Assembly (NCBI GenBank): GCA_002633005.1
Contig: NMRA01000979.1
Span: 16,835-80,834, forward strand
DNA length: 64,000 nucleotides
Direction: 5' to 3'
Source: Phoronis australis
Taxonomy: Eukaryota; Animalia; Phoronida
Below are positions 1,335 to 54,061 of the stretch, in pieces. Every line of letters begins with the position of its first letter. Positions within the stretch are counted from its first letter, which is position 1. A program made the translations under genes and the position numbers. The notes below the pieces were generated by a model. That model was not told the origin of the DNA, did no database searches, and saw only the letters and a list, made by a program, of their open reading frames with translations.

Positions 1335-1457
1335 CTTGAGTACTTCAAAAGTTCTTGTAATGTAATCGGGTTTCGTCTCCTTGCTAGTGAGCGTGACGTT
1401 GATGTGGCCGTATCTTTCCACCTCATGCGAGTCTGGCCAGTACTCTTCGCATTTTCG
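1335..1457 (-). CDS. Gene A exon 36, PTP D1 (KCEEYWP); alternative donor would extend it to 1326
   Basis: PTP motif 7. Confidence 0.92.
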
Positions 1458-28400: not shown

Positions 28401-31400
28401 AGGAACATATATCCCTGTTTTCACAATCATCCCTAGAGTGGTTTGGTTAGTAGAGGGGTGGACGCCAAACAACAGACTGGGAAACAGTAAAAATGGCTAA
28501 TAGGTGGTGGAAAATACCCGGAATCCATACGAAAACAGGAGGATAGCGTCATCCATTACAAGATGTCGATGTTCCGAATTTCATGAAAATCCGTTGAAAA
28601 CTTTGGAAGATGCAGAGGTAAACGTAAGAAATGTAAATTACAATTAGGAGACGCACAGGTTGTAAGATCAGTCCGAAATTCGCCGTCATCATAGAAATAC
28701 ATCTGACAAATCTTATCAAGATCCTGAGGGGCTTAGAAGATTAGCTGCGGACGCCCAGCGGACGATAGACACCCACACGCCCGCCAGACAAAGATGAAGG
28801 TAATACGCACCCACATATAAATGGGGTAGGTGCATAATAATATAACAAAGGCGACATCTTTGACTGTGTGTACTGCCTGTCGTCTAAACCTGTATTTTAT
28901 CAGAAATTTCGACCTTTTGAAATTTGATCGTGGTTTGTTAGCACACTGAAAGCTGGCCCAATGAGTTCAGGGTCTTGGAAATATCAAATTTCATCCCCGA
29001 TCTGTCATCAGTTTCACAAGTCAAACATCAGTCACCAGAAGAATTTTGTAGTCGTAAAACTAAAACAGTTAATACAACGGCAACCGCTCTACGTACGCAT
29101 TAAACTTGCAGAAAGGCAACTTTCGATTATTTATTTTCTGCAGTTTACATGCAGGTTCAAATAAAAACAAAACTAGATACTTTTAACAGAGAGGACGGCT
29201 ACACAGTTACGGAGATTTTTTGAAGTTTTTGTCTGGTTTTGCATTCTTTTAGGATTAGGAAAATAAATAAAATAGTTACTTGAATGGTATCAAAATCGAG
29301 AGTAAAATCTGAAGAAACGTAATTTAAATTATGGAACATTTACGATTGTCAGTTTGAATGAGTTTTTATGTGCCTGGTACATCTCGTCAACGTTGACGCA
29401 AATCCACATTCAATCTACATGTAATACCTGAACACAAGCTCACGTTGCAATGCTTCCACCGAACAGAAACAAGGTAACACCACGGTCCACCTTCCGTGTC
29501 GTCAGGATTCCGACAGAAATTTTCATGGGATTTCGGTTTCTTAGTGCTTTTCCACATTTTACATTTTTCGCCATTGCTTGCTGTGTTGACTTTGCCCATG
29601 TAATCCTTCCCGAGTTCTGTATACTTGCAATCATCTAAATTGACATTGTTTAAAAGCGAGGCATTTATCATTGTGCATTCATCTCACGGACGACACTGAA
29701 CAACAAACATCTTGGCGATCTTTTGAGATACTATTCTGAAGAGTTTAATAAAAATGTCATGTTGAAAATTAGAATTCATATACAACGTGTCATTATTGAT
29801 AAAATTGATGTCAGAGACAACCCAACGCAGACAATTCAAAACTGTTTAGCTAAATCAAATAAATCAACAATGTAGGACAACGTAACATTCAAAATAGGCT
29901 TAAAAAATCACAGTGCCACCTAGCACTAAGTTGAGTTACCATAAATTCACCGAGACAATAAAGAAAAGTTGACATTTGTTCAGTTAAAAGAGGTGCAAGA
30001 TGGTGTAAGGTGTTCATGGAAAATATGCTTACATTTTTATTCAACGTTTTCTTGGTTATAGATTATGGGTCTGGGTAAAAGAAAACCAAGATTTGCTTAT
30101 GGTTTGATAACCTTTTAAGCTCAGACAGTTCCGTTATAGCCTTGGACAATCGTACGAATAGAATCGTATAATCCTAGTCAAATCATAATCGTATCGTAAT
30201 AACATCGTAATTACAAAATGTGCATCATAGTCATATCGTTATCACATCTTAATTACAACGTAATCAAGTGCACCTCTTCCCGACAAAGGCGATTTGTAAA
30301 AAAATGGCCACGGTTGTTTAAAACTATTTTAGTAAAAGGTTCTGTGGTGATTGGCAAAAGAACAGGTCACCTAAGGCAAGTGAAATTAAAGAAATTACAC
30401 AGCAAGTGCCACTACAAAAACACTCACGAGAGCCGTTTCCACTGGTTATGTGTATCCCGTGAACAACGAAGGTTCCATTGAATTCCGCTCTCCACCACGG
30501 ATTTTGCAGATGACTTCTCTTCAATGTATGTGAACAAGACTTTCCCTTCAAGAAGTCTGTAGAATGACTGCCATCAATGGCCTTCCCGGCGTCAGCAGTG
30601 AAACTGAACGAGTGAGAAACAAGACTCAGCGTCGACGACTGGTCAGCTTTAGAGAGAGGAATTTTACCTACATTTGAACAAAACAGGTATTGTACGCATG
30701 CTTTCTGTAAACAAGGTAACTGGTGAATAGATGAAGACAGGCCGGAGAAAGTAATTACAACTTGATACGCATGTTTCCCTAAATTTTAAAAATAAAAGCG
30801 ATATCTGAGGTTGTTACAGTGATCCAAAATACAGCACCGGCAGCTATCAAACAAAGAAATATTCGGATAATTAAGGGGAAATCTAGTATATGCAAAAATA
30901 ACATATTCCATACGTGCGCACTTCTTGACTCCCACGCCATTTTACCAAATGTACATTTGTCGAAAAGTTATGTTCGTGAGTTGAGAAACGACGTCAAAAG
31001 TAAAGAAAAAACAAATTTCGTCACTTTCAATTCAACTACTTGCTTATGTTTTACTAAAATGAGCAAGGAAAGGGCAGTAGTCGTCGAGAATTTCAACTAG
31101 CGCAAGTGGAAACAGAAAATGGAGTCGTTTTTTTCGGTAAAAGGTCGAGCAATGAAGCAATTCGCATGGTACCAACTTGAAGATCGGTAAGTGGACTTCC
31201 TGGCATGCAAATCAAAATCTCCCGACCATAGAATCACCCTGACCATCAACTAAAACACTGCACATCACTGGTTGCAAAAATGACAACAATTCAAAAATAT
31301 TGTCCATTACAACACGATTTTTTAATTCTTCCACTGTGGTTGTCGGGCAAAATAATCCACCCTTAACGATGTCGCCGAGTATATGCTACTAACAAACGAA

Positions 31401-34400
31401 AGCCATTGAAACGTTAGCAGAGGAATCCGATTATATTTGCTGTCGGGTACAGTAAGGTATTACCATAGTGGGGGCTCACAACCCTAGAATACAAGTTAGT
31501 CTTGCTTCCAGTAGCCGTGAAGACGTTTACACCAGTGTGTATATGAAACTCCTTGTAGTCTAGTCTGCTTGATATTGACTGGACTTCTGACGGTGATAAC
31601 GTTGAGACACTTGCATCATACACGCTGGCTGATATGAGGTCAGTGGCTAGGTCAACGTTACTTCCGCCGTAGACGCGGACAGTTCCGGAACCCATTGACG
31701 AAAGTGTACTCAGACGGTAGAGTGGCTCTGAAAATTTTTTATGAGATATTTTATCCGTATGTGAGGCTACTCGCGCTCAGGTCATTAGAACGTGTATCAA
31801 TTGCGTCATTAAATAATAAAAACAAATTGATAAAATGAAAAGTAAAATTAGTTAAAGATACATGGAACGCGAAAAACAGACTCAATTGGAATATTGGAAG
31901 TGGTTCCGTGACACTAAAATGGAATTGAACCTGCTCACACGGTGTTTTTAAGGTTAGTTCGTAATGGTTTTTAATTTCTGTTGATATAAAACCATTTTCT
32001 TTTAGTTTCAAATTTCAGAAAAAAAAAACAATTTGTAAACTGCTCGCCCCTTCGCCTATTTTCTTCTACAAGGCAAAGCAGACATCCTTATTTGTTATGG
32101 CAAGACACAGACGTAGCACACTCCCCTAATATGGAAAATGTGATCTTTGACCTCAATGGACTTCAAGCATTTAACTGTGAGCGCATGCATGTACTTATCA
32201 TGAGTGGGAGGTAGATTACAAATTCTGTGGTGACCACAGAGCCATTCCTTCGTGCATGGTTCAACCGTGCGCGCACCCAGGGTGGGGGGGGGGGGGGGNN
32301 NNNNNNNNNNNNNNNNNNNNNNNNNNNNNNNNNNNNNNNNNNNNNNNNNNNNNNNNNNNNNNNNNNNNNNNNNNNNNNNNNNNNNNNNNNNNNNNNNNNN
32401 NNNNNNNNNNNNNNNNNNNNNNNNNNNNNNNNNNNNNNNNNNNNNNNNNNNNNNNNNNNNNNNNNNNNNNNNNNNNNNNNNNNNNNNNNNNNNNNNNNNN
32501 NNNNNNNNNNNNNNNNNNNNNNNNNNNNNNNNNNNNNNNNNNNNNNNNNNNNNNNNNNNNNNNNNNNNNNNNNNNNNNNNNNNNNNNNNNNNNNNNNNNN
32601 NNNNNNNNNNNNNNNNNNNNNNNNNNNNNNNNNNNNNNNNNNNNNNNNNNNNNNNNNNNNNNNNNNNNNNNNNNNNNNNNNNNNNNNNNNNNNNNNNNNN
32701 NNNNNNNNNNNNNNNNNNNNNNNNNNNNNNNNNNNNNNNNNNNNNNNNNNNNNNNNNNNNNNNNNNNNNNNNNNNNNNNNNNNNNNNNNNNNNNNNNNNN
32801 NNNNNNNNNNNNNNNNNNNNNNNNNNNNNNNNNNNNNNNNNNNNNNNNNNNNNNNNNNNNNNNNNNNNNNNNNNNNNNNNNNNNNNNNNNNNNNNNNNNN
32901 NNNNNNNNNNNNNNNNNNNNNNNNNNNNNNNNNNNNNNNNNNNNNNNNNNNNNNNNNNNNNNNNNNNNNNNNNNNNNNNNNNNNNNNNNNNNNNNNNNNN
33001 NNNNNNNNNNNNNNNNNNNNNNNNNNNNNNNNNNNNNNNNNNNNNNNNNNNNNNNNNNNNNNNNNNNNNNNNNNNNNNTTTTTTAAATGATAGTTTTAAG
33101 TGTAGAATGTATTTTTGACGAGGTGAAAACTCGAAATCGGTAACACAAATCCGGTCACGACCCGTTTGAAATACACTGAAGTAACGAAATGAGTACAGAA
33201 AGCGAATGGAAGTATTGTAGCCCCTAGATGGCCCCGCGTTGGTTTGAATGCGCTAAATCTCCCCTTACTCCCAGCTCTCCTAATGTTGTTTATCCATTTT
33301 TCACGAAATTCTTGGCTTGCAGGGAACTCATAAAATTCAGATTTTTATCTCTCTTGTTGTTTTTGAAGCAGCCAGGAACACAACAAGTGTATCCGCCGTA
33401 AGTTTTCTTCGCGCTCACCGCTTATTATGCTTGTTACTATGGCCGCTTTCGGAATCCTGACCACAGCACCCACAATGCACCATTTTAACCTAATTTCAAT
33501 ATGGCGTCGCTGCAAATCCGCTATTGTCCGAGCATAATTTTGTTGTTAATATTAGGTAAAAAGTCAGAAGTCGAAAGCATATGAAATTTAAACCAGAATA
33601 ACTAAAGTCAAATTGATGGAAGATAATAAATAATGGTCGTTTTTTGAATCAGTTTTCACTTAATTCACAGTGAATAAAAATTAATTCGGTCACTTACCAA
33701 TCTTTCTGGCCGACACGAAACGTTTGCATTTCCATCGGTAATGATACCTGTAAACAATTTGTTGAACGAATAATGCTCCATCCGACCGTAACATTTACTG
33801 TACGTGATGTATTTATGATAGTTAGTGGCATTTGTTTCGAAATTATCCATTCACGGTTTTTATAATGCAGTCATAGAAGTCATGTGATACCGGTCCGTCG
33901 GAAAGCATTTAACATTTTTGACGGATGGGCCAAGCTGCTACTGAGTGCTTGAAACGTGATATTGAGCAACGGGATAGAAAGAAAATTGTGCAATCTTGCA
34001 ACCTCTCCCCGTCAGCTTTTCTTCTCTCCACAAAAGTTTACACATCCACTTGCCGATCGTAATAAAGTCGTAACCCTATTGCGACCAACTTCCCGTGCCC
34101 AACACCGCGTCAACTTAACCTTTACGATTCAGTTAATTTTCAGAAAACATTTTCCGGTAACGTCATTTTAAATAATGACTTCTGGGGGACTATTGGATGC
34201 TAAATGTTTTTAAGACTCATAAAGGTTTTTTAGAAAATTATCCGCAACAACAAATAACATATTATGATTTATAATGATACTGAACCATATTTTATTGTGT
34301 TGACCCCAAATGTTTCTTTCTCCTGATATTGTGTTATTGGTGTATCCCTGGAGGTTGGACGTAATGTTCAGCCAAAACATTATGTTCACATTTTCATACA

Positions 34401-37400
34401 CGGGTTCGCTTGTTAGAGGCGCACGACCACTCTGATCTTCCCACAGTCTTAAATCAACTCACCAGAGCCGTTAGTCACGCTTTTAATTTAGATCATTTAT
34501 AAAAGACAGGTGGAGCTTCAATCAAACGGTTGAAGATTGTCCGGCGAAGGTCAACACAACATTATTTTTTTCAAAGCTTTTGTGTTGTGTTTCATTATTA
34601 TCCGTCAAGAGTAAACATCCAAGGGCAGTGTCCTTTTATCTGATCGAAGCAATGCTTTGATTTGACATGTGACTATTAACCTAACTTGAGTTCCACTTTA
34701 TTATGGAGCATTAATTGAAAGTCAAGTACCAGAAAAAGTAGGCTGTGTCAACTAGTAAAAGTACATATTTTCTAAAAGAAAAAAGATCACGGATTATAAG
34801 AAAAACTATACTTACATATCATTTTATTATAACTGGACCTCTTTTTAAGTGAAATTTTTTAAGTGAAACTTTTAAGGAAAATTCCTTTAAGTAAAAACTT
34901 GCCGATAACTCTAAACAACTCTGTTAGGAACTTTCGATGACCCATTTAGTTTAGTTTCTGCGCCAAATTAACTCGCAAAAACTAAGGCATTTTGGCAAAA
35001 AAACAACAGTCGTAGTCGTCTGTAGCACCGTCGTTTAAAAATTCCTAACAAGGTTTTTGTGTTAACATTGGGAAGATTCAGTGAAGTCGACACTTCATTG
35101 TTGTAGGCAACTTTTGAAAGTCGTACCGGGAAGACTGATATTAAGAAACCAAGTACGACATGATCAACATCCAGAATTAAAGCGCAGAGAGAGTTAGAGA
35201 ACGAAAAAGTGAAACGTCAAATTTCCGATGAAATTAATTACTTTGGGTGAGGATTTACCTTTTGTCACAACTCGCTGCTTTCGTGAAAAGAAAGTGCCTG
35301 ATGCCGTGCGGCGGAATAGTATGCACGCAAACCCGTAACTCCATCAGTATCAAAACCATGATTTGTCGCCATTTTCCGAGGCATCTTTCTATGCTATACA
35401 CATCTCGTTGAATGAAGAATATGTCAATGAATAAAAGGACTGTGAAGTCTGGAGATTCGATTTGAGTGTCGGCTCAATAACTTTTGAACTTCGATTAAGT
35501 TGCCAACAAATTCCCACGCGGTTCAAGTGGGTCGGGGAAATAGAATTTTTCCTACCATAAACAGACAAGATGTGGATTTGCAAGTTAACTAGAAATGAGG
35601 ATAACAGATTTATCAGGAATTCAATGTGGCAAAAAAAAATTTAAAAAAATAATATTGCATAGTCATAGAAATAGTCCCAACGAACGTGTCAACATCGCAA
35701 AACAAAGGAGTCGTAATACGTACATGTGGACACATCAGCCGACCTCAAGAAATGCGAAATCATATACATGCAACAACACCTTTTCCCAATTTTGTTAACC
35801 ACCCATAGAGTTCAAGGGGTCGTAATGTTAACGTGTTATTTACCCGTAACTCCGTCCAGCGCCGTAACGAAATGATGCGATATACGAAGTTCTAACTGGA
35901 GCTGTGCAAGTCGTCCATCTAACTGTTCTGTCAGAGTCGTTATCGCTCCAGGGCAAGATACGTCCGTCGTGCCACGCCGCACGACAGACTTTGGAGTCCT
36001 TTAGAAAAAATCGGATATAAGACATAGGTTTTAGACGTATACCAAAGGCCACTATAACAGAGTACCATATAAAATTAATACAATATATGGTAATTTTATC
36101 CAAAATATTCAATTACGTTCGAATAACGATACACTGTGTGTGCACTGGGGCAAACGATCACTGGAGCAATAAGTGCGTGTACAGGTTATACCACATACAT
36201 AGGAATACTACTGCCATATCCTATCTCCCATTCCTTTCATCTGGGAATGTCCCATCTCGACCGAATTATCCCGCATATATGGACTTACAGGGCCGTAGGA
36301 AGAGGGGGAGGGGGCGGGGGGGCACGGGCCCCCCAAAAAATTTTCAGGCGTCTGGGTTAAACCGTGGCAACCGACATAGGCGTGGTGCCGGGGACAGTTG
36401 AGAAAAGAAAGACCGCGAAAAACGAATAAGAGAAAAAATTCAAGAGGACATTTAACAAATCAGCATCAGTGCATGGTTTACCTTTTGAGGACCCTGTTCT
36501 CACTGTTCACAGCTGTCTAGGCTACTATTTATAATGATCGTGTACATGTCGAAAGGGGTACACCATAGACATCTTAATACTATGGAGCGGGCGCACGCGC
36601 TACTGCAGCTGACAACTTGACGCCATATTGGAGAGTGCTACTAGTCACGTGACACGGATATTTGCCATGTAAACAAACGGGGTAAATTGTCTTTTTCAAA
36701 GCGCGATATCCAACAAATAAAGAGGCCGAAGAGTGTGATTTTCTCCAGAAACATACATGTACAAAACATGTGATGTAGCACTTACATGCGTTTTTTTAGA
36801 GTTAATCAGTCGATAAGGAAAAAATCGAACTATTAGAATATCGCAACCAGTGGATACTCGAGTGGCCTGAGCGTGTTAATCCACTGCGAGCGTTTTATTT
36901 GTTTTCTTTTTTTCAAGAGAAACCAGTAAGATCACGCAAACTTATCAGTTAATTCGTGTCGCTCGTTGCAAATACATTATATCCAGGGGACGCGCTGCTC
37001 ACTTGGGACGTACTTTTGTGTGCCCCAATAAGCCTTAGTTTTCAGTATTGGAAATGACCCGGGTAACTACGTAAAATCAAAATACGACCCAGGTCGCATT
37101 TAAAGGGGGACCGTTTAAATTTAATGTGAACTACTGTTGGAGTCATATAGATAAATAACAGGTTTTTAAAGTTCATTAGGGAGTTCTCCCGTTCGACCAG
37201 ACGTACAGCCGTTGTGAACGTGTGATAGTCTTAACATGGGTTGTATAGTTGGTCGATTTTGGTGATTCAAAAACTTTAAGCATGACAAGTATTTGATGGG
37301 GAATTCAGAAATGCCATTCGTTTATGTTCAAACATTTTATAAGTTAACTTATTTTAACACCACAGCCCAGCTAGTCAATAAGATACGATCTTATTGGAGA

Positions 37401-40400
37401 TTAGAGCAACTATCGAACAAAAGAGAGCTGACCCTCGAACCCTAATTGCCAGAATGGACTTAATCAGTCGTCGGTGTAAGCTATTGGCTAACAGTGGTCA
37501 TCCGCCCAACTTGTGCTATACGGCAACCTAACAAGTTACACTAAAGGGGAGAACTCCGTAATCTAAAAACCATAGAACACAGACCCAATTCCTCTCCTGC
37601 GCATCGCTCGGGATTGCCAACGGACAAATATTCTTCTCTCACGCACGGTATTCCTCTCTCACGGACCTGAATTCCCCCCGATCATTCACCAGGCACTTGT
37701 CGGCCTTTTGTAGTATCCCCACACCGTGTAATTGTGTGCTCACAAAGAGATCAGTTCCGCTCCTATACATTATTTCGAACCGTTCCTATCCACTCCCGCC
37801 CTTAACTGAATATGTACTGCGCGTCCCTCAGCCGCCGAGAAATTTAAAATAAATTCTTCTCCCACGCACGCTTGGCCTCAGTTCTCACGATTACAAATTT
37901 GACTTTCATAATAAGAACACTTGGCTGCGATAGGAAGATTCTTAACATGTGGCCAAGTATTTTGGATTTGTCTTCATGCAGTTCAATAGTCAGATATTAC
38001 ATCTTGGCACGAGCAGAGTAAAAATGCCCAGTTGCCAAGTTGGGCAACTGAACGACGGACTGTTCGAAAAATTGTGATTGTTTTTGCTTCAGCCCAGCTT
38101 CTCTACATCATATTCCCGGTCTGCACGCCGTTCAGTACTTTCACTCTCTAATTGAGGCATATATTGAAAAAGCAAGATTTCCCTTGCCGCGCGTTAATCA
38201 GGTGACCCCCATACCTAAGCATCCGCGTATCGAACATTGTTGAAAGATCGCCAATTGCGGGTTTCGTGCCTGCTTATCCCAACCCCCTGTTGCAGAGGAA
38301 CCCAGTGGCGGATTTAGAGGGGCCAAGACCCCTTTATCCCAGCTTCCATTTGACAGTTCGGGGTGCGAAAGTCCGACGGGCAAAATCCTGGCTAATACAT
38401 GNNNNNNNNNNNNNNNNNNNNNNNNNNNNNNNNNNNNNNNNNNNNNNNNNNNNNNNNNNNNNNNNNNNNNNNNNNNNNNNNNNNNNNNNNNNNNNNNNNN
38501 NNNNNNNNNNNNNGCTCCAATGAGCCGAATGAGCCCCCATTTGACCAAGTGGGCAAAAGGTCCTTCTAAGAGAAACAAAAAGTCCGAGGAAATGAGACAA
38601 AAGTCGCGAATGCACAATGAGCGGGGTTGAACCAAGTACCCCATTTTTTAGTACTCATCGTCTTGCTCCAGTAACAGGTCCACATGTCCGCGAAATTCGA
38701 ACCCCCTCTATATTTTAGGCTGGGTACGCGCATGTAATCCTCTGCCTTTGCCCCCCTAAATCAAAATTTTTAATCCACCCCTGGAACCGTTGAATAATGA
38801 CGGGTTTTCACGGACGGGAGGTCATTTTTTCATTGGCTAAAAATTCTTCACATTAAATTTAGACCCTGTGAAAAAATAGCCCCGGTCATTTTTCACGGAG
38901 TCATTACTTAATGCTACACCGACTCGGTTGGTTATATTTCCACTCGGTTTCGAGTGGGAAATTCTGTATTTTGTGTATACGTTGGATGCGCAATTCAGTC
39001 GTACAAGTTTCATATATTGGTTACTATAAATTTTACTTCTTTTGCGCAAGTTTTGAGTCACAAATAAAGAACTCGTAAGCAAGCAGTGCAAAACCACAAA
39101 ATTTCCTATATCAAATTTAACACAAGTACAGATTTTGCAGGGGTATGTTTGTTTTAATACAACAGAAGAAATCTGATTTTGGAATACTTATTAAGAAATG
39201 AGTTTTTAAAACAGTATATGTTTCAACAGAGAATACATTCTTCACTTAGATGTACTGATTTTGATGGCTTGCGAGTAAGTTCGGGGATATTATTTTTCAG
39301 AACAATTAAAAATATATATGATTGTCATTGATACTGAATATTTATTTAAATATAATTAGCAAACAGCATCATCATTGGATAACAGCATATGCTGGTCAAT
39401 AAGTATCTTTTAATTGATCTTACATGGTCTCATGCACCAAGACTAGTGTGGAAACAGCGCATAATTGCTCCCCTTATACTATGGTGGCAGAACATAAAAA
39501 CCTAATGGCAGCACCTCTTAACTCCATGGTCGAACCAAAAAACTCATGACTCAAAGGCAGGACCAAAAAACTTAACCCTTTGGGTGCAAGCATAACACTG
39601 CGAGCCCGCCGATTTTCTGACTGATGCTGTAGGGCTAACAGTGTTTTCCGCCATTTTTGTTCTGAGTAACACTCTCCAATATGGCGTCATATTGACGACG
39701 CGAACTGCATGTATCTGAGTAGCGCGCACCCGTTCTATGTGATGTCTATGGGGTACTCAAACAACTCTCGCAATCATAAACAAAAATTTCAACGTTTTTT
39801 TGTCAGTGGAGTTCAAGTTTACATCGTGAACCGTTGTAGGTACCTCTTAATACGTATACCTCGTCTCCCATATTCCCCCGCTTACCCGTCAAAAGTCTGC
39901 AACCATGCATGCGGAAATTCGTTGGTTTCTGATTTACTTGTTTATGTATCTACGAATATCGATAGATCCATAGATGATTTTTGACAATTAGAAGCTAATC
40001 TTGTAAGACTTGGTGATAATTCAGTGAATTTAATTGCTGCTTGAAGTTGGAAAAACTCTATCTGATCCCAAAATAGTAAAGTATACCTAGACGATTTTTG
40101 CATGTCTAAAATAACTCTCAAAGACATCGATGAAATTCATACACACAAACTGTAGATAGAAAAAACGTTTTAAAAATACTTAAATAAATAAAATCAAACT
40201 CATTGTTTGGAAAGGTTGTCTTCGCAGTTCCTTGGTGTTTTTAGTTTCCAGTAGTATTGAGTAATGAAGTTTTGTTCTCCAAAACTGAATTGATTGCTTC
40301 CCTGATTCGCATGACTGGCGTATCCACGTTAAAAATGCAGTAGGCCGCGCAGACTCCCAGTGATAACCACAAGAACTGAATTTGAACTACAGGCATTCAG

Positions 40401-43400
40401 GGAGTGTGAACATTTTTGGGACACACTATCCTTTCCCCAGCCACCAGAAACTGAACTACCGGTCGTGTTTCAACTAGGGATTTTGAAACAGTCGCTAAGG
40501 TACTATACCAGGGACTTCGGGGCCTCACCTTTAAAAAAACTCTTTCAAAGAATTACCATAATGAAATAAAGTTTTCCCGAAACTGGATCACAACAAAACG
40601 AATCTTGACCTTAGAACGAGCGCAGACGGCCGGCACGAGCTAAGCTGCCCGTCTCAAGTGAATCATAGTTGAGCTGACCAGCAACTAGCTTTAGTTCATC
40701 GGGAATTTCGTATTTTCACACTGTTAGATCTCAGCTATAGCTACTTGAGGCAGCTCCTCGCTACAGGTCAGTGTACTTACNAGGGGTGGGGGGTGGTAGC
40801 AGAGGTGGTGGCGATGGGGGAGTTATTTAGCGACGTCGAAATGGTTTGTGTTCCCCAATAATTTTTGCCTTCCTAAGGGCCTGACTTATTTGCATCATCT
40901 TGGCAATACTTCCTTGGCATGTGCTCCGGCTTGTTGTTATACGACGCCATACAGTGTATGCCAAGTACGGTACCCAAGCCGGTTAAGCGACAACACTATA
41001 TGAGAAAGTGTTGAAAAGCTAGTGAAGTTTTATTTCATAATGAACTGATCAGAATTTTATGTTTGTGAAACATACAAGTTAAAGAACTGAACCATTCAAA
41101 AATGTCAAAAGTTTGTCGGAAACTTAGAAACAATCAATCCAGGAATATAGAATCTGAAAAATTCCTTGAACGGGGTTGTGCAGCAGTGTGTCCTTTTCGA
41201 TAAATTTCTTTAGTTTTCTTGGTATATTTTCGTGTGTTAGCTTCTGGACTGTAAATAGTAATAAACGCATTTCCCCGTGTTGATCACAGCATTAGAACAT
41301 AACGGCGGAAACTCTGATGATTTGCAGAACTTGAGGTAATGACTGTACCGCAAAAAGCAGATGGTAAACTACGTACTTTGAACGCTGTGTCGAGCAGACG
41401 ATTGGTTCCATAAAAACACATACTCGTTATTTAGTCTTAATTTGTCGTAAATACCTTAACCCCTGTGTAGTTATACTACCTGCATACATGAAGAAACGTT
41501 TTCCAGTGGCGGATCTACGTCGTTTTCAGTAAGGGGGGTTTAGGATTCCCGCNGGGAGGTCGGGTAAAACCCCTCCCGTGTAAGACAACTTTTTGTTTTT
41601 ACAGCCAAACAGTGAAATTTCCATGCATCCTGGTACGTTTCTGGCACTTAACATGTCCCTGGAATTTTCTTAAGATAATCAAAAACCCTTCTCGATTTCT
41701 TCACATGAACTTGGCTCATAAGTTTCGCGAAACCATATTTGTGCACATCTGGGTATGAGTCACACCACCAGCAAAAAATTTTGTTGGAACTTCGGCTTAC
41801 ACGCACCTTTTAGTGTACGAAAAAGTGTGGTGTGTATACAGGGGTTTAGACAACTAAAAATATTCAAGAGCATAAGGAGCACCGACGGAGCGTAAAAAAC
41901 TTGAAAATCAGATGATTGCAACAACCTCAAGCTGTTTAAGAACGAAGACCTGTACTGTTAGTCCGGAAATAAACATGTTTTATGTCTCGTTACGAGAAAA
42001 ACTGGCGAACGACGGTGATCTCAGCTCATAATCTATTATTAAAAGCGACAACAAACTATTAAGTATCACTTTATTAAGCTGAGTCACGTTGGCAACAATT
42101 GAAAAACGTCAAATGTATAAAGAAACAAATCATCTGAAAACAGTTTCACGAAACCAAAACATCGTGTGCACATTGGTGAAAAGATATACTGGACTAGTTT
42201 GCAGAGGGACCAGATGTACACTGAGAGTACACAAAAAGGCTGACCTGGTCCGTCACGAGACCTTAAGCGTACTTTGCAAACAATTTTGAATTGAAAACTT
42301 CTCTCTAGACACTTTTTAATCCCCAGTGGTTGCTCATACGTGTAGTTTACACATCTGGTGGTCAACTGCGAGAGGTTGTCTAGGAATGGTTTTTGCACCG
42401 TTCTGTAGTACCCAGTACCCCTGGAAGAAACAAGTATTGAGTACAGATTTAGCTACGCACTAAGTGAAATAGATTTTGGATATGAAGCAGATAGACTCAG
42501 GTGGAAATACAAACCAGAATCAGTTTCTGTGCGCTCGTAGACCCTCTGCTGTACTGGGTAAATTTGGCATGTCCAAAATAATTTCTATTTCGTTTTCATT
42601 GTACACAAGCATAAAAAACCGACATTATTACAAACTGTGTAAAATTATAACTTATTACCTGGGCGTTTCTCCTGGAACGTTGGTCCTATCTTTCTGTTGT
42701 TCAGACTGCCGAGGAATCTGTATATCGGATCCAATGGTTTGCTCGTCTTGGAACCATTCTACCCAGACATCTTTGATGTTTATTCCCAACACTTGCACTT
42801 CGTCAACTGCTCTGTCAATGAGCTTGTACGCCTCTACAATGCCAGCATCTTGTTTCGCAGCTCAGTTGGCACTAAGCCCACCGAGGTTACCAAGTCCATT
42901 CAAAAGACTTACATCATGCGCAACTAAATTGGATCCGTTTATCACCGACTACTTCAAACCTTGACGACGTATCACAGGACTCATTTGTATCTCTTGTAAT
43001 TTTCAAAATAAAGGTCCCAATGTCTGAACACTTGAAACCTGAAGTACTAACGTCAAATAAATGCCCATAGACATGGGCGTTCCGTCGGGTGAACCTTTCT
43101 GCGGAAATTCCCAGTATAAAAAATGGCAGTGTTGCTTACTGCAGGTAGAAAGACGGTAGGTGTTGAGGTCGGCGCTTCGGGCGCCTTAGGAGGCCTATTG
43201 AACATCGCACGAGTCCCGCAAGACTTTGTTGTGAAAATACAGCCTGCAAGCAAATTTTTGGTACTGTACATTGTTCGTAAATGCGGTCACTCTGTCAATG
43301 TGAGTGCCCCCTTTTTCATTCCTTGTATAGACATGAATTGTTAGAGGGCATCTTCAAACAGACTCGCGACCAGACCACGGAGCCCGCCACAATAGCAATT

Positions 43401-46400
43401 CTTCGGAAACAAGGTTTATTTTCAACAGTATTACATGTGCATGTACACTGTATGGTATTGCGCAAGACAACTTTACTATACACCAGTCAAATTCGAGTTA
43501 CAAACGTGTGGGGTGTAAAACGATGACACGGCACGGCAGATGAGGTAAAAACGTTGCACGTCAACTCGCCTGATTATCAGGGTTGCGGCACCACAGTATT
43601 TCCCGTAATCAAATCAAAAAATATCTTAGAGTAAAGAAACTAGTTACCTAAAGAAATCAGCTATAGAGCTGCTCTTTCAGCGGTGGATCCATCTAAAATG
43701 CTTGGCTAGTTTACTTAAGAAGTGTCGACGGAAGCGTGCGCACAATTGATCTCCGGGGTTTTGCCGATGAGCCCCGAAGACTCGAAATGCGTTGATTTTC
43801 ATCACAGCAATTCACATTGCAAAAAACGTATTTTCAGAGTGAACCCTACCTTATTTTTTCCAAGTTGATTTACTTGGCGTTTACACACGCTGGCTGTGCC
43901 GTTTTTGTTTTGTTGGAGACGTTTTTTTAATTTTTGTTTCCTGGCCCGAGGGTGGGGTTAAACCCCCTGAACCCCTCCCCCCGTAGATCTGCCACTGTTT
44001 TCGTCAGATTTGAGTTAAATTTTTGACTGGTTTTGCTGCCCGGGACGCTACGTAGCTTGACCTATTTATGATGACCCAGACTGAAACTTCAGTGAGGCCC
44101 AACATTTGCCGCCTGATCACCGTGCGTCGGAATTCTCATCGGTACATGTATTTACAGCAGTAAAACTGCTGTGCGTGAACCTGGACTCCTGCTTAATCTC
44201 AATATTTAGCGGAAGCGAGTGTTGCGTGAACTTGGAATTGAAAATTCTTTAAGGCAAAAGGGTACAATTTTTGTTCGGTGAAAAGATTTCTTCTAATTAT
44301 TGGCCTCGCGATCAACCATTTTCTCCTTTACCGTAAGTTGTGTCGCTGAACCGGAGGGATATGTGAATGGCTAAATCGATTGTTATTTGGTGAAACTGAT
44401 CGCCCGTAGTTAAAGAGATTGATAAAATTGATACTATTTTATTCAAATGTAACTTGATTTAGTGCAGCGCAAATTTTGATGAACATGAACGTGATTATTT
44501 CAGTGACCTTGTCAAGTTGCCTCGAGTATTCCAAGCTCACGCAAAACTCATTTCCGCTTATTCTTTAGATTAAGCAGGATTCCAAGTTCACGTACAACAA
44601 AACTGCTTTTTCAGGAAGGACACCTTAGACTGAAGGTTTGGGTTACCCAAAACGAACGATCACAATCTCATTTGACATGCATTTACTTGACAAGGAGACT
44701 GCTCACCAACCGTATACAACATCCGTATTTTCAGATATATGGGTAAAAGTAAGATATTTATGGTCGCATTACGAGCGCTGTAGGCACACACACACGGACA
44801 CACACGAACGCACACGCACGTTCACAAACACACGTTACGCTGTGCACAGGACGCAGATAAAAACGACATTGAGAACCGTACTAGTGGCACGCACAGCGGA
44901 ATAAGACGGACCACTATACTGGTAGGACGCACAATGTACGTAGTCAGGTGGAATGCTATTCCTGTAGAAAGCACACGGAACACTACATGTATGTTTGTCG
45001 GACGCAAAACCTGAGCACCGTACTCACACTACACCCAACGTATATCCATTCCATCAAGACGCACGCGTAATCAAGCCAGATCTCTAAAAGAAGTGTAACT
45101 TATCCACACGTGACGCCTATAGGCTGTAGTTGCAGGAGGCACAGTGTACTTACATGGAGCGGCACATTTGCAAGACGCATGACGTAATCATACAACGCCT
45201 CATTATTGTGACCATATGAAGTGCTATAGTACATGTATGGGGCACAACGGAATCTCAAAAATCGGCATTCGTAGGACGCGGAGCACCGTGCTTTAAGTTT
45301 GAGTCTCTCATCTGTTCTATGATAAGACGTCTTGTCTGCCTTCCAGCGAGGTAACATTGACGTCATACAGACAATGTGTATATAAATACAAAATGAACAG
45401 ATTGTTGTTTAGGCAGATTTTTTTAATTGGCTATAGCAATGTTTGCGAAGGACACATGCATGGAATAGAGGATGTTTCTTTAACCCAGGAATGCTTTGTA
45501 AAAACGGCAATGAACTAAATGTATACATTTCTTCGAAACTAATGCATTCTAAAGTCATATTTGTAAGGAGTTGTCTTTTTACAGATTTCGCATTCAATGG
45601 GTCAAATCCAAAGTAAAGTCAGTTTATCGATAACAACTTACGTTCGTATAGTAATACGCGCCAAACACAGACGTGGCTCTTGGACACTCACGCTTGGGGC
45701 AGACGTAGTCCGTGCTGAAATCGTCAGAACAAAACAAAACGTATAAATTACAACACGATTACAGTGAAAAGCAGACTGTAGAGAAGCAGTCATACTTTGA
45801 TTTCAACAGTGTCGAAATTACAGTTTGCTCGGAATTTGTTTTGAGCGTCTTCATTTTGTTCAAGGACTACAGTCGGCCGAAACAAAAAACATGCACCCCG
45901 ACCTAAAATCAAGTTTGTCTTACTTGCACGAAGTCTGGGCCGCTTTTCCCCCATAATGTTTATGAATTGTGAATGAAATAAACCGCGTCTACGTTGTAAA
46001 GCTACGTGTATTATTAAATTAGCAATTCCAACATGTAGTAGTATATCAGAAAAAACCAAGATGCACATTTAACTACTTTTCGTTAGATATTTCAAAAATA
46101 ATTACGTTTTAACCAAATGGAATTGTTGAGTTCAATGCAACTGCTCGCACGACTACATCTTGTGAACAACACAGACCCAATTTCGTACACCAAGTTTCTA
46201 GTGATAAAAGGGAGACCTCGCAAGACCACGTAAAATTACACGAGTGAAAGCTGAGTGAGTAGGCCTATGCTCGAGATTTAATTAAATCCAATCTGGCAAA
46301 CTAAAGGCCATTGAATTGTTCGGTTGGTGCGTAGATGATAGAATTAATAAAGTATGGGATGGAATTCGCCTTTCCGGGCAATAACCTGAAATTTCTCACC

Positions 46401-48351
46401 GAAGCTGCTGGTCTGTCTCTGGACTACAGCACGCAGGCCTGGTGCCCAATTGTAGATAACAATACGCCCAAAAATTGAATCACACAAGTCTTCACAAAAT
46501 ACCCCCATGCATTATATGTGGAGTACGTGATCACACTAGCTATACTGGCGAGATCCCTGCGTCTCAGAAACTCAATCTTGCAGGACCATAATTAAGCTCC
46601 AATTCGAGTCGCACGGCTACATATGCTTACAATAAGTGTTCATTTGAATATTTGCTGACTTTTGTTGACGGTAGTTCTTGATGTGACAAGTCCAATACTG
46701 CATGTTGTATTTTCACTGCGCCGAGAAAAATTTGATGGCCACAAACCTGCTGCATGCACTGTTTCGTGAAGTAAAAAAACCGAGAGTCATCGCTGCACAG
46801 GTGTAATATTCTGGAAGAACGAGAGTTTTCACCGGAATTTGCACCGGAACAGTGATGGTCAAGATCAATTTTAGATTTGCGATGGGCACACTGTGTTCAA
46901 ATCTCATCATACAAGTGTTCCTACGAAGCAGAGGCCAATTAACTTACTTATCTTTTTTATTTCTAAACTGCGTCTCACATGTTAAGTCCCCATCTGACGT
47001 GGCTGGGATCTTTAGTACACCATCTACTATAGGAAAACAAAACATAACAAGCTACGAATACAATGTTGCACGACACGTCAAACATTCTTGAATGCAAAAC
47101 ATGTTTGACCAGTAATGATGGGTTGGCAGCTGGAGATGTGAAGAGAAATCTTTCATATTTCGCATTTCTTCCATCAATAACAATTTAATCCCATTTCTGC
47201 TACTAATTTAAAGATGCAATGCTTGCAGTGTGCCTGAGATATTCTTCTTCGCCCCTTCGCCTCGAATCAATTGCATTACTAAGTGGACGGTTCATTTTTG
47301 TGGTGATGATAAAAATGGTCATTACTTTGAAAAGAGGGAAAGCAATTACAGTAGCCTTAGTATAACATGGAAACCCGCGAATTCACCTAAAAATCGAATA
47401 AATCTAATGATATGTACTTTACTAAGAGCAAATTGAATTACCCACAGTTGCCGATTCTACACTTATCTTCTGAAAAAATACACCACACGAAGCACAGCAA
47501 TTCGTTGAAGTTTGTTATTTCCTCACGACGTTATAACATAGATATATTGAGTTACTGTTGAAATACACACGATAACGGCACATTGCGTGACGTAAGGACG
47601 TTCGGACGTACGGACAAACGCAAAGTGGGCACAAGTATCCTGCGAGGTTTAATCTTCACCAACTTAGGGCCCACGTTATAATCTCTGCTCCCGGAACTCG
47701 ACAAGAGAACTAACCAAATATGTGACATGTCTCGAATATAACGACGGACAGTGCATGAATACCACAGGCCCAGAAGTCTACTTTCGTGTGAAATAAAATA
47801 AACATTTTTAGTAATCGTTGTGTTTGAAATACCAATGCCAATCCAAACGTCAGTTTGAATGTTTGAATTTTACACATATGATATGATACTGGGAATTCTT
47901 TGAGATATTCAAGCACTGGATTTCCATGAAAAGCTCATGTGAATCACTTAACGTGAAGAAATTGTCCTCAAGTTGTTCTTCATCGGTCAAACTGGGGTGA
48001 GTTAAGGGCCTCGAGGGAAGTAGGAGTTCGTTATTGCGAGAGACAAGAGTCTAGAGATTACCTCGTCACGGCCTATAATTTTATGAGACGAACACGAACA
48101 CAAACTGTTGAATGACAAACGTTCTATGGTAACTATTTCTCTTCTGAGACTGAAACTTGTTGAGACCTTCGTATGTCTGATTAAATTTGTGGGGGGGGGG
48201 GGCGAGAGCGTGCAACAATATATTGCACAACATTTCGCAGAAAACAAAACTTACGTTGATACATGTACAGAGATTCCATGGACATAATGTATACATGTAT
48301 TTACTTACCGAGAAGACAGAGTAAAACCAGTGATGTCTCAAGACGAACCAT
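1335..48351 (-). CDS. Gene A (spliced, 36 exons in window, 3' end beyond window start): receptor-type protein tyrosine phosphatase with LCCL / FTP+kringle / Tie-like Ig-EGF / FN3 ectodomain
   Basis: All 36 exons have AG/GT borders and chain in compatible phases to 7458 nt; signal peptide, TM helix and PTP motifs (KNRF, DFINAS, DFWRMVW, KCEEYWP) are present. Confidence 0.9.
1647..1744 (-). CDS. Gene A exon 35, PTP D1 ([18 protein letters not shown])
   Basis: PTP motifs 5-6. Confidence 0.94.
1953..2066 (-). CDS. Gene A exon 34, PTP D1 (DKNRVVL...[11 protein letters not shown]...FIAAMG)
   Basis: PTP motifs 2-4. Confidence 0.93.
2548..2635 (-). CDS. Gene A exon 33, PTP D1 ([12 protein letters not shown])
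   Basis: KNRY-type motif; 88 nt, same size as the gene B exon. Confidence 0.92.
2888..3093 (-). CDS. Gene A exon 32, juxtamembrane to start of PTP D1
   Basis: [24 protein letters not shown]...LDEEY; phase 1->0. Confidence 0.88.
3310..3461 (+). mobile_element. tRNA-derived (SINE-head-like) sequence enclosed by inverted repeats
   Basis: A box TGGCTCAATGG (3344), B box GGTTCAAGTCC (3389); no convincing cloverleaf. Confidence 0.5.
4465..4550 (-). CDS. Gene A exon 31, juxtamembrane
   Basis: [12 protein letters not shown]...; cctgtag/GTAAGT; phase 2->1. Confidence 0.82.
4948..5000. repeat. (ATT/CAT)n trinucleotide microsatellite
   Basis: Direct inspection. Confidence 0.8.
5059..5164 (-). CDS. 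Gene A exon 30, transmembrane helix
   Basis: [24 protein letters not shown] followed by RRRR across the splice junction. Confidence 0.88.
5421..5548. mobile_element. Foldback MITE-like element with CGTAAAATGTAACA repeats
   Basis: About 25-bp inverted ends CTGATACGACGTAAAATGTAACA / TGTTACATTTTACGGCGTATCAG; three direct copies of the motif. Confidence 0.65.
5607..5640 (-). CDS. Gene A exon 29, 34-nt linker ([11 protein letters not shown])
   Basis: cctacag/GTAGTG; supplies the required phase 0->1 bridge. Confidence 0.55.
6465..6729 (-). CDS. Gene A exon 28, RPTP membrane-proximal domain
   Basis: FYLVVVE...KSRRS...YITANF...[17 protein letters not shown]..., the RPTP stalk motif. Confidence 0.9.
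7175..7283 (-). CDS. Gene A exon 27, start of membrane-proximal domain
   Basis: [26 protein letters not shown]; tttgtag/GTGAGC; phase 1->2. Confidence 0.78.
8136..8292 (-). CDS. Gene A exon 26, FN3 second part
   Basis: [21 protein letters not shown]; phase 0->1. Confidence 0.88.
9256..9365 (-). CDS. Gene A exon 25, FN3 first part
   Basis: PGEPGSL...[17 protein letters not shown]; phase 1->0. Confidence 0.88.
9755..9821 (-). CDS. Gene A exon 24, FN3 end ([22 protein letters not shown])
   Basis: ttgcag/GTAAGA; phase 0->1. Confidence 0.85.
10113..10363 (-). CDS. Gene A exon 23, FN3 first part
   Basis: APTNLSV...LSWNAP...GYLVSY...[10 protein letters not shown]; phase 1->0. Confidence 0.9.
11637..11939 (-). 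CDS. Gene A exon 22, FN3
   Basis: PPRN...FTW...QNGNVSNY...[13 protein letters not shown]. Confidence 0.92.
12822..13424 (-). CDS. Gene A exon 21, FN3 pair (603 nt, repeat 4)
   Basis: Closely similar to exons 19 and 20; phase 1-1. Confidence 0.92.
14046..14648 (-). CDS. Gene A exon 20, FN3 pair (603 nt, repeat 3)
   Basis: Closely similar to exons 19 and 21; phase 1-1. Confidence 0.92.
15270..15872 (-). CDS. Gene A exon 19, FN3 pair (603 nt, repeat 2)
   Basis: [24 protein letters not shown]..; phase 1-1. Confidence 0.92.
16383..16985 (-). CDS. Gene A exon 18, FN3 pair (603 nt, repeat 1, most diverged)
   Basis: Two FN3 patterns; phase 1-1. Confidence 0.9.
17413..17718 (-). CDS. Gene A exon 17, FN3
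   Basis: PGPVQNL...WKEP...GYEL...[13 protein letters not shown]. Confidence 0.9.
18057..18276 (-). CDS. Gene A exon 16, FN3 second part
   Basis: GYYVIEY...WRVRIRAFN; phase 0->1. Confidence 0.82.
19038..19102 (-). CDS. Gene A exon 15, FN3 first part
   Basis: [22 protein letters not shown]; tttcag/GTAAGA; phase 1->0. Confidence 0.75.
19482..19790 (-). CDS. Gene A exon 14, FN3
   Basis: LYIRW...YVVEYK...YKVRI; 309-nt phase 1-1 exon. Confidence 0.85.
20104..20247 (-). CDS. Gene A exon 13, EGF 3
   Basis: [39 protein letters not shown]; phase 1-1. Confidence 0.9.
21092..21241 (-). CDS. Gene A exon 12, Tie-like EGF 2
   Basis: [15 protein letters not shown]...[26 protein letters not shown]; DPYGCSC is Tie-typical. 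Confidence 0.9.
22906..23037 (-). CDS. Gene A exon 11, Tie-like EGF 1
   Basis: [41 protein letters not shown]. Confidence 0.92.
   Translation of the reverse strand, partial: FAVEVDLVATAQTTVRNVRTEVFVTTSRASVYAPRDFAEISVR
23144..23674. mobile_element. MITE with Kolobok-like termini
   Basis: TIR AGGAGAATGTCA / TGGCATTCTCCT flanked by TTGA / TTAA. Confidence 0.6.
23909..24154 (-). CDS. Gene A exon 10, Tie-like Ig2 domain
   Basis: [11 protein letters not shown]...QWQKD...GGVYTI...TRLIVR, resembling Tie Ig2 that ends RLIVR; phase 1-1. Confidence 0.8.
24654..24899 (-). CDS. Gene A exon 9, C-terminal half of F-type lectin (FTP) domain
   Basis: LKDFEVRVS...LC...[13 protein letters not shown]...LSLCEVEVW motifs; phase 1-1. 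Confidence 0.88.
25640..28840 (+). repeat. Degenerate tandem array of ~140-150-bp subunits, possibly a Helentron-associated/DINE-like element, interrupted near 26900-27750
   Basis: Recurrent GCCACTAGG(A/T)GGC and CCAAATTTCA..AAAATCC motifs; terminal hairpin GCACCCAC..GTAGGTGC near 28808-28833. Confidence 0.65.
27414..27566. mobile_element. Short hAT-like MITE
   Basis: TIR CAGTGTTCGAA / TTCGAACACTG; degenerate 8-bp TSD TTGTTGGT / GTGTAGGT. Confidence 0.6.
29428..29634 (-). CDS. Gene A exon 8, kringle domain
   Basis: DCK...GKDYMG...KCKMW...NFCRNPD...PWCY...WKHC...LC, six Cys; phase 1-1. Confidence 0.9.
30428..30667 (-). CDS. Gene A exon 7, N-terminal half of F-type lectin (FTP/F5-8C-like) domain
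   Basis: ADQSST...AGKAIDG...SCSHT...NPWW...IHIT motifs; phase 1-1. Confidence 0.85.
31464..31727 (-). CDS. Gene A exon 6, Cys-free beta-rich module, possibly a diverged Tie Ig1-like domain
   Basis: Open 264-nt phase 1-1 exon with ttttcag/GTAATA; domain identity is uncertain. Confidence 0.65.
33079..33526 (-). mobile_element. THAP-domain transposon fragment, copy 1 (frameshifted; abuts gap)
   Basis: [18 protein letters not shown] / FYEFP...[10 protein letters not shown] is the THAP N-terminal pattern; near-identical inverted copy at 54927. Confidence 0.75.
33698..33747 (-). CDS. Gene A exon 5, 50-nt linker ([16 protein letters not shown])
   Basis: ttgtttacag acceptor, GTAAGT donor; supplies the required phase 2->1 bridge. 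Confidence 0.55.
35844..35998 (-). CDS. Gene A exon 4, LCCL core ([14 protein letters not shown]...SYIASFRYG)
   Basis: Matches the LCCL signature YxxDSxxCxAAxHxG when joined to exon 3; phase 0->2. Confidence 0.8.
36564..39750. mobile_element. Non-autonomous DNA transposon, P-element-like termini
   Basis: TIR CATAGACATC / GATGTCTATG, subterminal inverted GACGCCATATTGGAGAGTG, 8-bp TSD GGGTACAC / GGGTACTC. Confidence 0.75.
38303..38783. mobile_element. hAT-like MITE nested in the P-like element (spans a small gap)
   Basis: Ends CAGTGGCGGATTTA / TAATCCACCCCTG; GAACC on both flanks. Confidence 0.7.
41504..43997 (-). mobile_element. Decayed hAT-superfamily DNA transposon with transposase remnant
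   Basis: TIR CAGTGGCGGATCTACG / CGTAGATCTGCCACTG; TTTTC on both flanks; minus-strand fragments [21 protein letters not shown] and [19 protein letters not shown] resemble hAT (ZMYM1/PRKRIR-type) transposase, with stops. Confidence 0.85.
45642..45714 (-). CDS. Gene A exon 3, LCCL ([24 protein letters not shown])
   Basis: CPxxxC...VFG...YT LCCL pattern; tttcag/GTAAGT; phase 2->0. Confidence 0.8.
46948..47026 (-). CDS. Gene A exon 2, start of LCCL ([26 protein letters not shown])
   Basis: ttttcctatag acceptor, GTAAGT donor, phase 1->2. Confidence 0.75.
48309..48351 (-). CDS. Gene A exon 1, signal peptide [14 protein letters not shown]
   Basis: caaaATGG start context, hydrophobic stretch, GTAAGT donor, phase 1. 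Confidence 0.8.
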
Positions 48352-53986: not shown

Positions 53987-54061
53987 TTACTGAAAGTTCG
54001 CGTAAGTTTCAAAGGACTCCAAAAATCGCTGAGCCATCAAGTAAAGGGACTTGTACTGTTC
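53987..54061 (-). CDS. Gene B terminal exon ([24 protein letters not shown])
   Basis: ttttttcag acceptor, EQY motif, TAA stop. Confidence 0.9.
   Translation of the reverse strand, partial: EQYKSLYLMAQRFLESFETYANFQ

Follow-up and report, generated by a model that had tools for sequence, protein, structure and literature searches.

The second of two tandem minus-strand receptor phosphatase genes in the window (the whole 64-kb stretch of DNA that was analysed, animal genomic DNA of ~39% GC) is a real, exon-shuffled variant of the Tie-like receptor phosphatases, and its most unusual feature is a kringle nested inside an F-type lectin (FTP) domain. The gene begins with an ATG at 48351 and extends past the left end of the window. 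Starting at this ATG, its GT-AG model stays open through 28 exons and 2201 residues as far as the juxtamembrane region. The predicted order of domains is signal peptide, LCCL, an 88-residue domain, the F-type lectin split by the kringle, Ig, three EGF, ~14 FN3, a membrane helix and PTP (Table 1). It is highly probable that this is a single phosphatase gene with an LCCL tip, and the LCCL likely caps a large Tie-like receptor phosphatase. A second copy of the N-terminal modules was not found within the 64-kb window.

Table 1 Features of the phosphatase gene model and of its tandem paralog, in window coordinates
Feature	Position	Strand	Remarks
First coding exon, ATG and hydrophobic core of predicted signal peptide	48309..48351	-	43 nt; signal judged by eye
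LCCL exon 1, signal peptide end, Cys 1	46948..47026	-	79 nt; contributes about 4-6 bits of profile score
LCCL exon 2, Cys 2 and 3	45642..45714	-	73 nt; ranks 2nd of 2880 six-frame window fragments (LCCL profile)
LCCL exon 3, core motif, Cys 4, conserved His	35844..35998	-	155 nt; Pfam PF03815 E 0.17; reads in run X2
LCCL exon 4, phase 2 to 1	33698..33747	-	50 nt; joint seen in RNA reads; donor at 33698 predicted
88-residue exon, at the place of the first Ig domain in Tie-type receptors	31464..31727	-	Phase 1-1; open frame; stranded reads
FTP N-terminal half	30428..30667	-	FBP32 residues 25-70, E 5.7e-12; eel agglutinin residues 27-78
Kringle exon, phase 1-1	29428..29634	-	207 nt; Pfam PF00051 E 3.6e-13; stranded reads
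FTP C-terminal half	24654..24899	-	FBP32 E 7.4e-05, C-terminal part of both its domains; splice to Ig exon in 5+1 reads
Tie-type Ig and three EGF exons	20104..24154	-	24154-23909, 23037-22906, 21241-21092, 20247-20104
FN3 stalk, ~14 repeats by exon structure, and juxtamembrane FN3-like domain	6465..19790	-	Pfam fn3 in 10 exon frames, 7 above cut-off
Predicted transmembrane exon, hydrophobic	5059..5164	-	Sequence; acceptor provisional
First four exons of membrane-proximal PTP domain	1335..2635	-	Pfam PF00102 on two of four
Tandem paralog, cytoplasmic PTP exons only	53989-63598	-	Stop near 53989

A Divergent LCCL Domain Predicted from Four Small Exons

The initial annotation had proposed an LCCL domain assembled from three small exons of 79, 73 and 155 nt, placed directly behind a signal-peptide exon. 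All three exons proved real: they have AG/GT ends, compatible phases and an open frame, the quoted peptides lie on the minus strand where they had been placed, and the chain joins directly and in frame to the 43 nt exon 48351-48309. The exon count did not hold, as a fourth exon of 50 nt (33747-33698) had been missed. Splice scores for these exons are partly circular, since the 79, 73 and 155 nt exons were themselves among the 31 used to train the splice matrices. At LCCL exon 1, two AG lie three bases apart and form a tandem acceptor (47023-47026), with equal profile score either way. LCCL exons 2 and 3 are separated by a 9.6 kb intron, which harbors a repeat-rich, probably transposon-derived stretch (41350-44700) with many reads from other copies.

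A search with exon 3 against 1.84 billion representatives gave nine matches at E up to 0.001, four of which, the top two included, are tandem-LCCL proteins with E-values that are inflated by repeats. From these four proteins (P0006, P0007, P0009 and P0013), 21 repeats were collected into an LCCL profile of our own; the other five matches, non-LCCL repeat proteins (P0008, P0010, P0011, P0012 and P0014), were kept out. Against this profile, the three joined exons reach 44.1 bits (E 2.3e-11 at Z=24736). The four-exon peptide scores 43.9 bits, a value equalled by none of 1000 shuffles. The profile score of exon 3 itself is circular, as the profile sequences were picked via this exon. Exons 1 and 2 alone are independent of the choice of profile and reach 13.7 bits, whereas the best of 1000 shuffles scores 5.5. 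When 2880 six-frame fragments of the window were scored, the best two were exons 3 and 2.

The order and choice of the exons can be judged from 253 open, phase-compatible chains that lead through one or two exons from the signal exon to the 155 nt exon. The originally proposed chain comes out on top at 44.1 bits, tied with its 3-nt acceptor variant, and no chain that lacks exon 2 exceeds 23.9 bits. Exon 1 has the least profile support, because five chains of exon 2 with a different first exon still reach 37-40 bits.

The LCCL assignment itself stood, with its signal confined to the N-terminal half of the domain, where the aligned profile positions are only 2-53 of 95. The C-terminal 54 residues give no LCCL signal alone and can be aligned only by force; of 1000 shuffles, 192 do as well. 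Pfam PF03815, run on single exons only, matches exon 3 at E 0.17 (12.5 bits versus a cut-off of 22.6) and gives no match to exons 1 and 2; the 44 bits of the joined peptide come from our own profile, a model other than PF03815. All four LCCL cysteines are kept (model residues 31, 46, 51 and 70) and align with those of the profile. The motif YxxxSxxCxAAVHxGVI with its conserved His, as given in an excerpt of PMC10892792, is matched at eight of ten fixed positions, both Val being substituted. The predicted LCCL region spans 106 residues versus about 100 expected for a full LCCL, and it is both basic and aromatic, with 20 Lys/Arg, 10 Asp/Glu and 17 aromatic residues and a pI of 9.6, compared with a pI of 4.2-6.9 in seven of eight sampled homolog LCCL repeats. 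The motif is followed by an insertion, and two extra cysteines (96 and 124) could pair. In the LCCL fold, two sheets enclose a central helix.

These features bear on whether the domain has a ligand at all. Exon shuffling could have left a relaxed, mainly structural cap or spacer without ligand, with the kringle or the Tie-type unit making the contact instead. The unrecognisable C-terminal half of the LCCL hints in this direction, together with the lost sugar motif of the FTP domain described below, the lack of a detectable family for the adjoining 88-residue domain, and many residue-changing read differences, as in a fast-evolving gene family. Retention of four cysteines and of eight of the ten motif positions over three exons, in-frame splicing of the LCCL exons and the potential pairing of the two extra cysteines nevertheless make a ligandless cap unlikely.

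The 88-residue exon behind the LCCL found no family in Pfam, protein and atlas searches, and its single-sequence structure model has a pLDDT of 34. The idea, formed by eye, that it represents the first Ig domain of Tie was unsupported (best BLASTP E 8.4 against the Patiria miniata Tie-like kinase, P0004). An other-frame reading of this region through two shorter exons was dropped once the fourth LCCL exon had fixed the phase. Word-index searches, which covered proteins of up to 2000 residues, returned no homologue for the 155 nt exon or for the second EGF exon and five distant matches for an FN3 exon, and atlas searches with two exon queries, that of the 88-residue exon included, gave no usable match. 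PDB matches of the 155 nt exon (beta-lactamase inhibitor II and weaker others) were repeat-inflated and were rejected as chance.

RNA Reads and Continuity of the Gene

RNA reads came from three raw-read runs (X1, X2 and X3) and one contig run, picked by species label. On the exons of the gene, the first mate maps almost only to the plus strand, corresponding to minus-strand RNA in most stranded libraries; the gene is thus transcribed from the minus strand. Expression is low in X1 and X2 and barely visible in X3.

Two of the eight joints listed at 96% likeness are exon joints of the phosphatase gene, namely 35844-33747 and 24654-24154 (5+1 reads). The former is carried by three reads with three different starts, all from run X2, and spans a GT-AG intron, with four letters that fit either side. 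The 50 nt exon that it reveals is needed: joined directly to 31727-31464, exon 3 breaks the frame and runs into a stop. It is the 50 nt exon that leads from phase 2, at the end of exon 3, to phase 1, with which exon 31727-31464 opens. At low coverage and with three reads needed per joint, those listed do not include the joints from the signal exon to LCCL exon 1, between LCCL exons 1 and 2 and exons 2 and 3, from exon 4 to the 88-residue exon and on to the FTP domain, or on either side of the kringle. At 90% likeness, mapping was swamped by repeats, and no joint of the phosphatase gene is among the 15 of 53 joints listed. We infer one continuous mRNA from the LCCL to the phosphatase from frame and phase, because most N-terminal joints are absent from the listed read joints.

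If the mRNA were not continuous, the LCCL exons would encode a short secreted protein of their own or be an optional 5' end, with the phosphatase starting elsewhere. This would agree with the absence of a listed read bridging exons 33698 and 31727, and the intron between them contains a 780 nt N gap. Read-through at the donor of exon 3 or exon 4 leads to an immediate stop and would yield a free LCCL, and three AATAAA hexamers lie in the intron between these two exons. On the other hand, the shift from phase 2 to phase 1 made by exon 4 is the one that exon 31727-31464 requires, AATAAA was not found in the sequenced part of the intron behind exon 4, and no other signal-peptide exon was noticed by unsystematic inspection. 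We therefore regard a separate LCCL transcript as very unlikely.

Several further stretches attract reads. In the intron past LCCL exon 4, a THAP-like fragment (33099-33344, Pfam E 0.0054) adjoins the N gap and has heavy repeat-derived read coverage; a similar repeat with heavy repeat-derived reads (about 54890-55120) borders the gap at 55120. Stranded reads of 90-96% likeness from X1 and X2 cover 30698-31363 and are mostly gone at 96%; a possible 12 nt microexon of phase 1-1 ends there at 31238, with a donor score of 8.1. Among 40 of the 72 rows of read-versus-genome differences, at least 13 are exonic, eight of them changing a residue, and the other 27 are intronic or in repeats. In the Ig exon (23909-24154), five of six such differences change a residue; these may be alleles or paralog reads.

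A Kringle Nested Inside an F-Type Lectin Domain

The kringle exon is flanked by two exons of the gene whose products align with successive halves of solved F-type lectins. The kringle, on an exon of phase 1-1, thus sits inside the F-type lectin domain. The kringle is recognised well above the Pfam cut-off (50.1 versus 34.3 bits), has six cysteines and aligns with the kringles of plasminogen and HGF. On each FTP half, Pfam F5_F8_type_C_2 is weak and under its cut-off. A head of three modules, LCCL, FTP and kringle, had been suggested by the initial annotation. The modules are indeed present at the tip of the phosphatase model, but they do not simply follow one another, as the 88-residue exon lies between LCCL and FTP and the kringle is nested in the FTP domain.

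In F-type lectins, fucose is bound by His52, Arg79 and Arg86, and loop CDR4 carries Arg79 and Asp81 (Vasta et al., excerpt of PMC5712786). The corresponding motif, His...Arg-x-Asp-x4-Arg/Lys, is broken here. The equivalent of His52 is kept, and those of Arg79 and Asp81 are Gly; the residue following eel agglutinin N78, i.e., the position of Arg79, is already Gly in the N-terminal half. The 69-residue kringle begins four residues past the Arg79 position, within the CDR4 loop. The DG motif of the Ca site is kept in the FTP domain. When both flanking introns were scanned by pattern for an overlooked Arg-x-Asp linker, a single match appeared, in a frame full of stops. Judged from these residues, the FTP fold would no longer bind fucose and likely acts instead as a pedestal that shows the kringle at the former sugar site. 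Charged glycans or proteins, and not fucose, are the likely ligands of the head.

Read depth on the kringle in run X2 is at least that on the FTP halves, and no skipping joint is among those listed, which fits inclusion of the exon without proving it. In run X1, the kringle has depth at 90% likeness and little at 96%, which points to an allele that has diverged or to a paralog sharing this kringle. Both the LCCL and the kringle have phase 1-1 boundaries, and we therefore infer that they were acquired by exon shuffling.

Tie-Type Unit, FN3 Stalk and Phosphatase

Behind the split lectin, the gene follows the Tie-type order of Ig, three EGF and then FN3. The Ig-EGF3 unit shares 40% identity across 228 residues with the Patiria Tie-like kinase, and the second EGF matches Tie2 at E 1.9e-05. 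Within the FN3 stalk, four exons of 603 nt each (12822-16985, minus strand) encode two FN3-type repeats apiece without an intron and share 73-89% DNA identity. The last three are 86-89% identical in DNA, indicating a recent internal expansion of the stalk. A candidate linking exon ahead of the membrane helix gave a stop.

The cytoplasmic exons encode PTP and not the tyrosine kinase of Tie-type receptors. The exons for the WPD loop and the catalytic motif (HCxxGxxR) lie outside the window, and the gene may encode an active phosphatase. The tandem paralog ends with its own stop 5.6 kb upstream of the ATG of the phosphatase gene and has tandem D1-D2 PTP domains, WAD for WPD and an intact catalytic Cys loop. 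The first four PTP exons of the phosphatase gene share 77% protein identity with it (109/141), and both genes carry Phe for Tyr in the KNRY motif.

Possible Ligands and Function

LAR-type phosphatases are controlled by glycosaminoglycans. We tentatively favor, at somewhat less than even chances, a comparable role for the LCCL-tipped phosphatase: its basic, aromatic LCCL would bind polyanionic self glycans in the matrix or on cell surfaces, the FTP fold would serve as the pedestal for the kringle, and clustering of the receptor by the glycan ligand would tune the phosphatase. That the ligands belong to the polyanionic glycans is by itself about evenly balanced. Cochlin binds sulfated heparin/heparan sulfate, as reported for the whole protein, the domain not being resolved (PMC9333281, excerpt). 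The high pI of the LCCL cannot separate host glycans from LPS. The missing profile signal in the C-terminal half of the LCCL, the Phe for Tyr in KNRY and the WAD of the paralog also count against the favored role. An ortholog with a head of LCCL and split FTP/kringle was not found.

An alternative is the pattern- or self/non-self-recognition receptor of the initial annotation; its basic LCCL would bind LPS or foreign surfaces, and its phosphatase would set the threshold of immune cells. Interactions with components of bacterial walls are documented for factor C, cochlin and Lgl1/CRISPLD2, although LPS binding is reported there for whole proteins (PMC10892792, excerpt). A tandem paralog is present, and eight of at least 13 exonic read differences change a residue, as do five of six in the Ig exon. 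Yet these differences are few (from 40 of the 72 rows), may come from paralog reads and are densest in the Ig exon rather than at the tip, and the fucose motif of the FTP domain is broken. Recognition of this kind is possible by analogy with the family and seems to us rather improbable. More speculative still, and distinctly unlikely, is a tandem polymorphic RPTP family in which the shuffled head, with its LCCL tip and a kringle replacing the lectin sugar site, would be an inhibitory self/non-self receptor and skipping of the kringle exon could switch between two forms.

Novelty and Significance

In the full-text literature, which included portions of PMC3269628 and PMC11788884, with most subscription papers and Byrum 2006 beyond its scope, we came across neither a receptor phosphatase that bears an LCCL nor an F-type lectin domain that contains a kringle. 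The gene offers a clear case of a domain-in-domain insertion at a known ligand-binding loop, and the Tie-type frame gains a testable head. It also illustrates how easily N-termini made of short exons are missed: two of three single-exon protein searches came back empty, and the fourth exon is visible only in RNA reads. This amounts to no paradigm shift, as shuffled heads are common among invertebrate receptors.

Comparison with Known Systems

The closest frame is that of the Patiria miniata Tie-like kinase (XP_038066666.1) and Tie2/TEK (PDB 2gy5), which have the Ig-EGF3-FN3 arrangement in common with the phosphatase gene. The Patiria protein additionally resembles it in having an N-terminal F-type lectin domain of its own and a PTPRU-type juxtamembrane FN3. 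In contrast to both kinases, the phosphatase gene has a phosphatase in place of the kinase, the LCCL tip and a much longer FN3 stalk. Its FTP domain follows the 88-residue domain and is split by the kringle, whereas the Patiria kinase retains the Arg-x-Asp-x4-Arg loop. Eel agglutinin (PDB 1k12) and FBP32 (PDB 3cqo) align with both FTP halves, with the DG motif and the His52 equivalent kept; they differ from the phosphatase gene at the equivalents of Arg79 and Asp81, which are Gly in the latter, and by the 69-residue kringle in its CDR4 loop.

DCBLD1/2 are LCCL proteins of the membrane that are not known to have a catalytic domain. The four cysteines and the core motif are common to cochlin, Limulus factor C, CRISPLD2/Lgl1 and the tandem-LCCL proteins of Branchiostoma, Clavelina and Lissotriton. 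Compared with these LCCL proteins, the phosphatase gene has just one LCCL copy, which is divergent, carries an insertion behind the motif, has two additional cysteines and is predicted to sit on a membrane phosphatase; the four profile proteins (P0006, P0007, P0009 and P0013) carry LCCL repeats and have no Pfam PTP match. Cochlin is further alike in its N-terminal LCCL behind a signal peptide (PMC10892792, excerpt).

The FN3-stalk RPTPs, i.e., the R2A/LAR, R2B and R3 types and lineage-specific invertebrate members, share the FN3 stalk, the single membrane helix and a classical PTP. Novel lectin-bearing RPTPs are reportedly named among the sea urchin phosphatases by Byrum et al. 2006. RPTPs with altered WPD loops have been described from sea urchins (PMC5336234, excerpt). 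What sets the phosphatase gene apart from the FN3-stalk RPTPs is its head, predicted to consist of an LCCL, a split FTP domain, a kringle and Tie-type EGFs.
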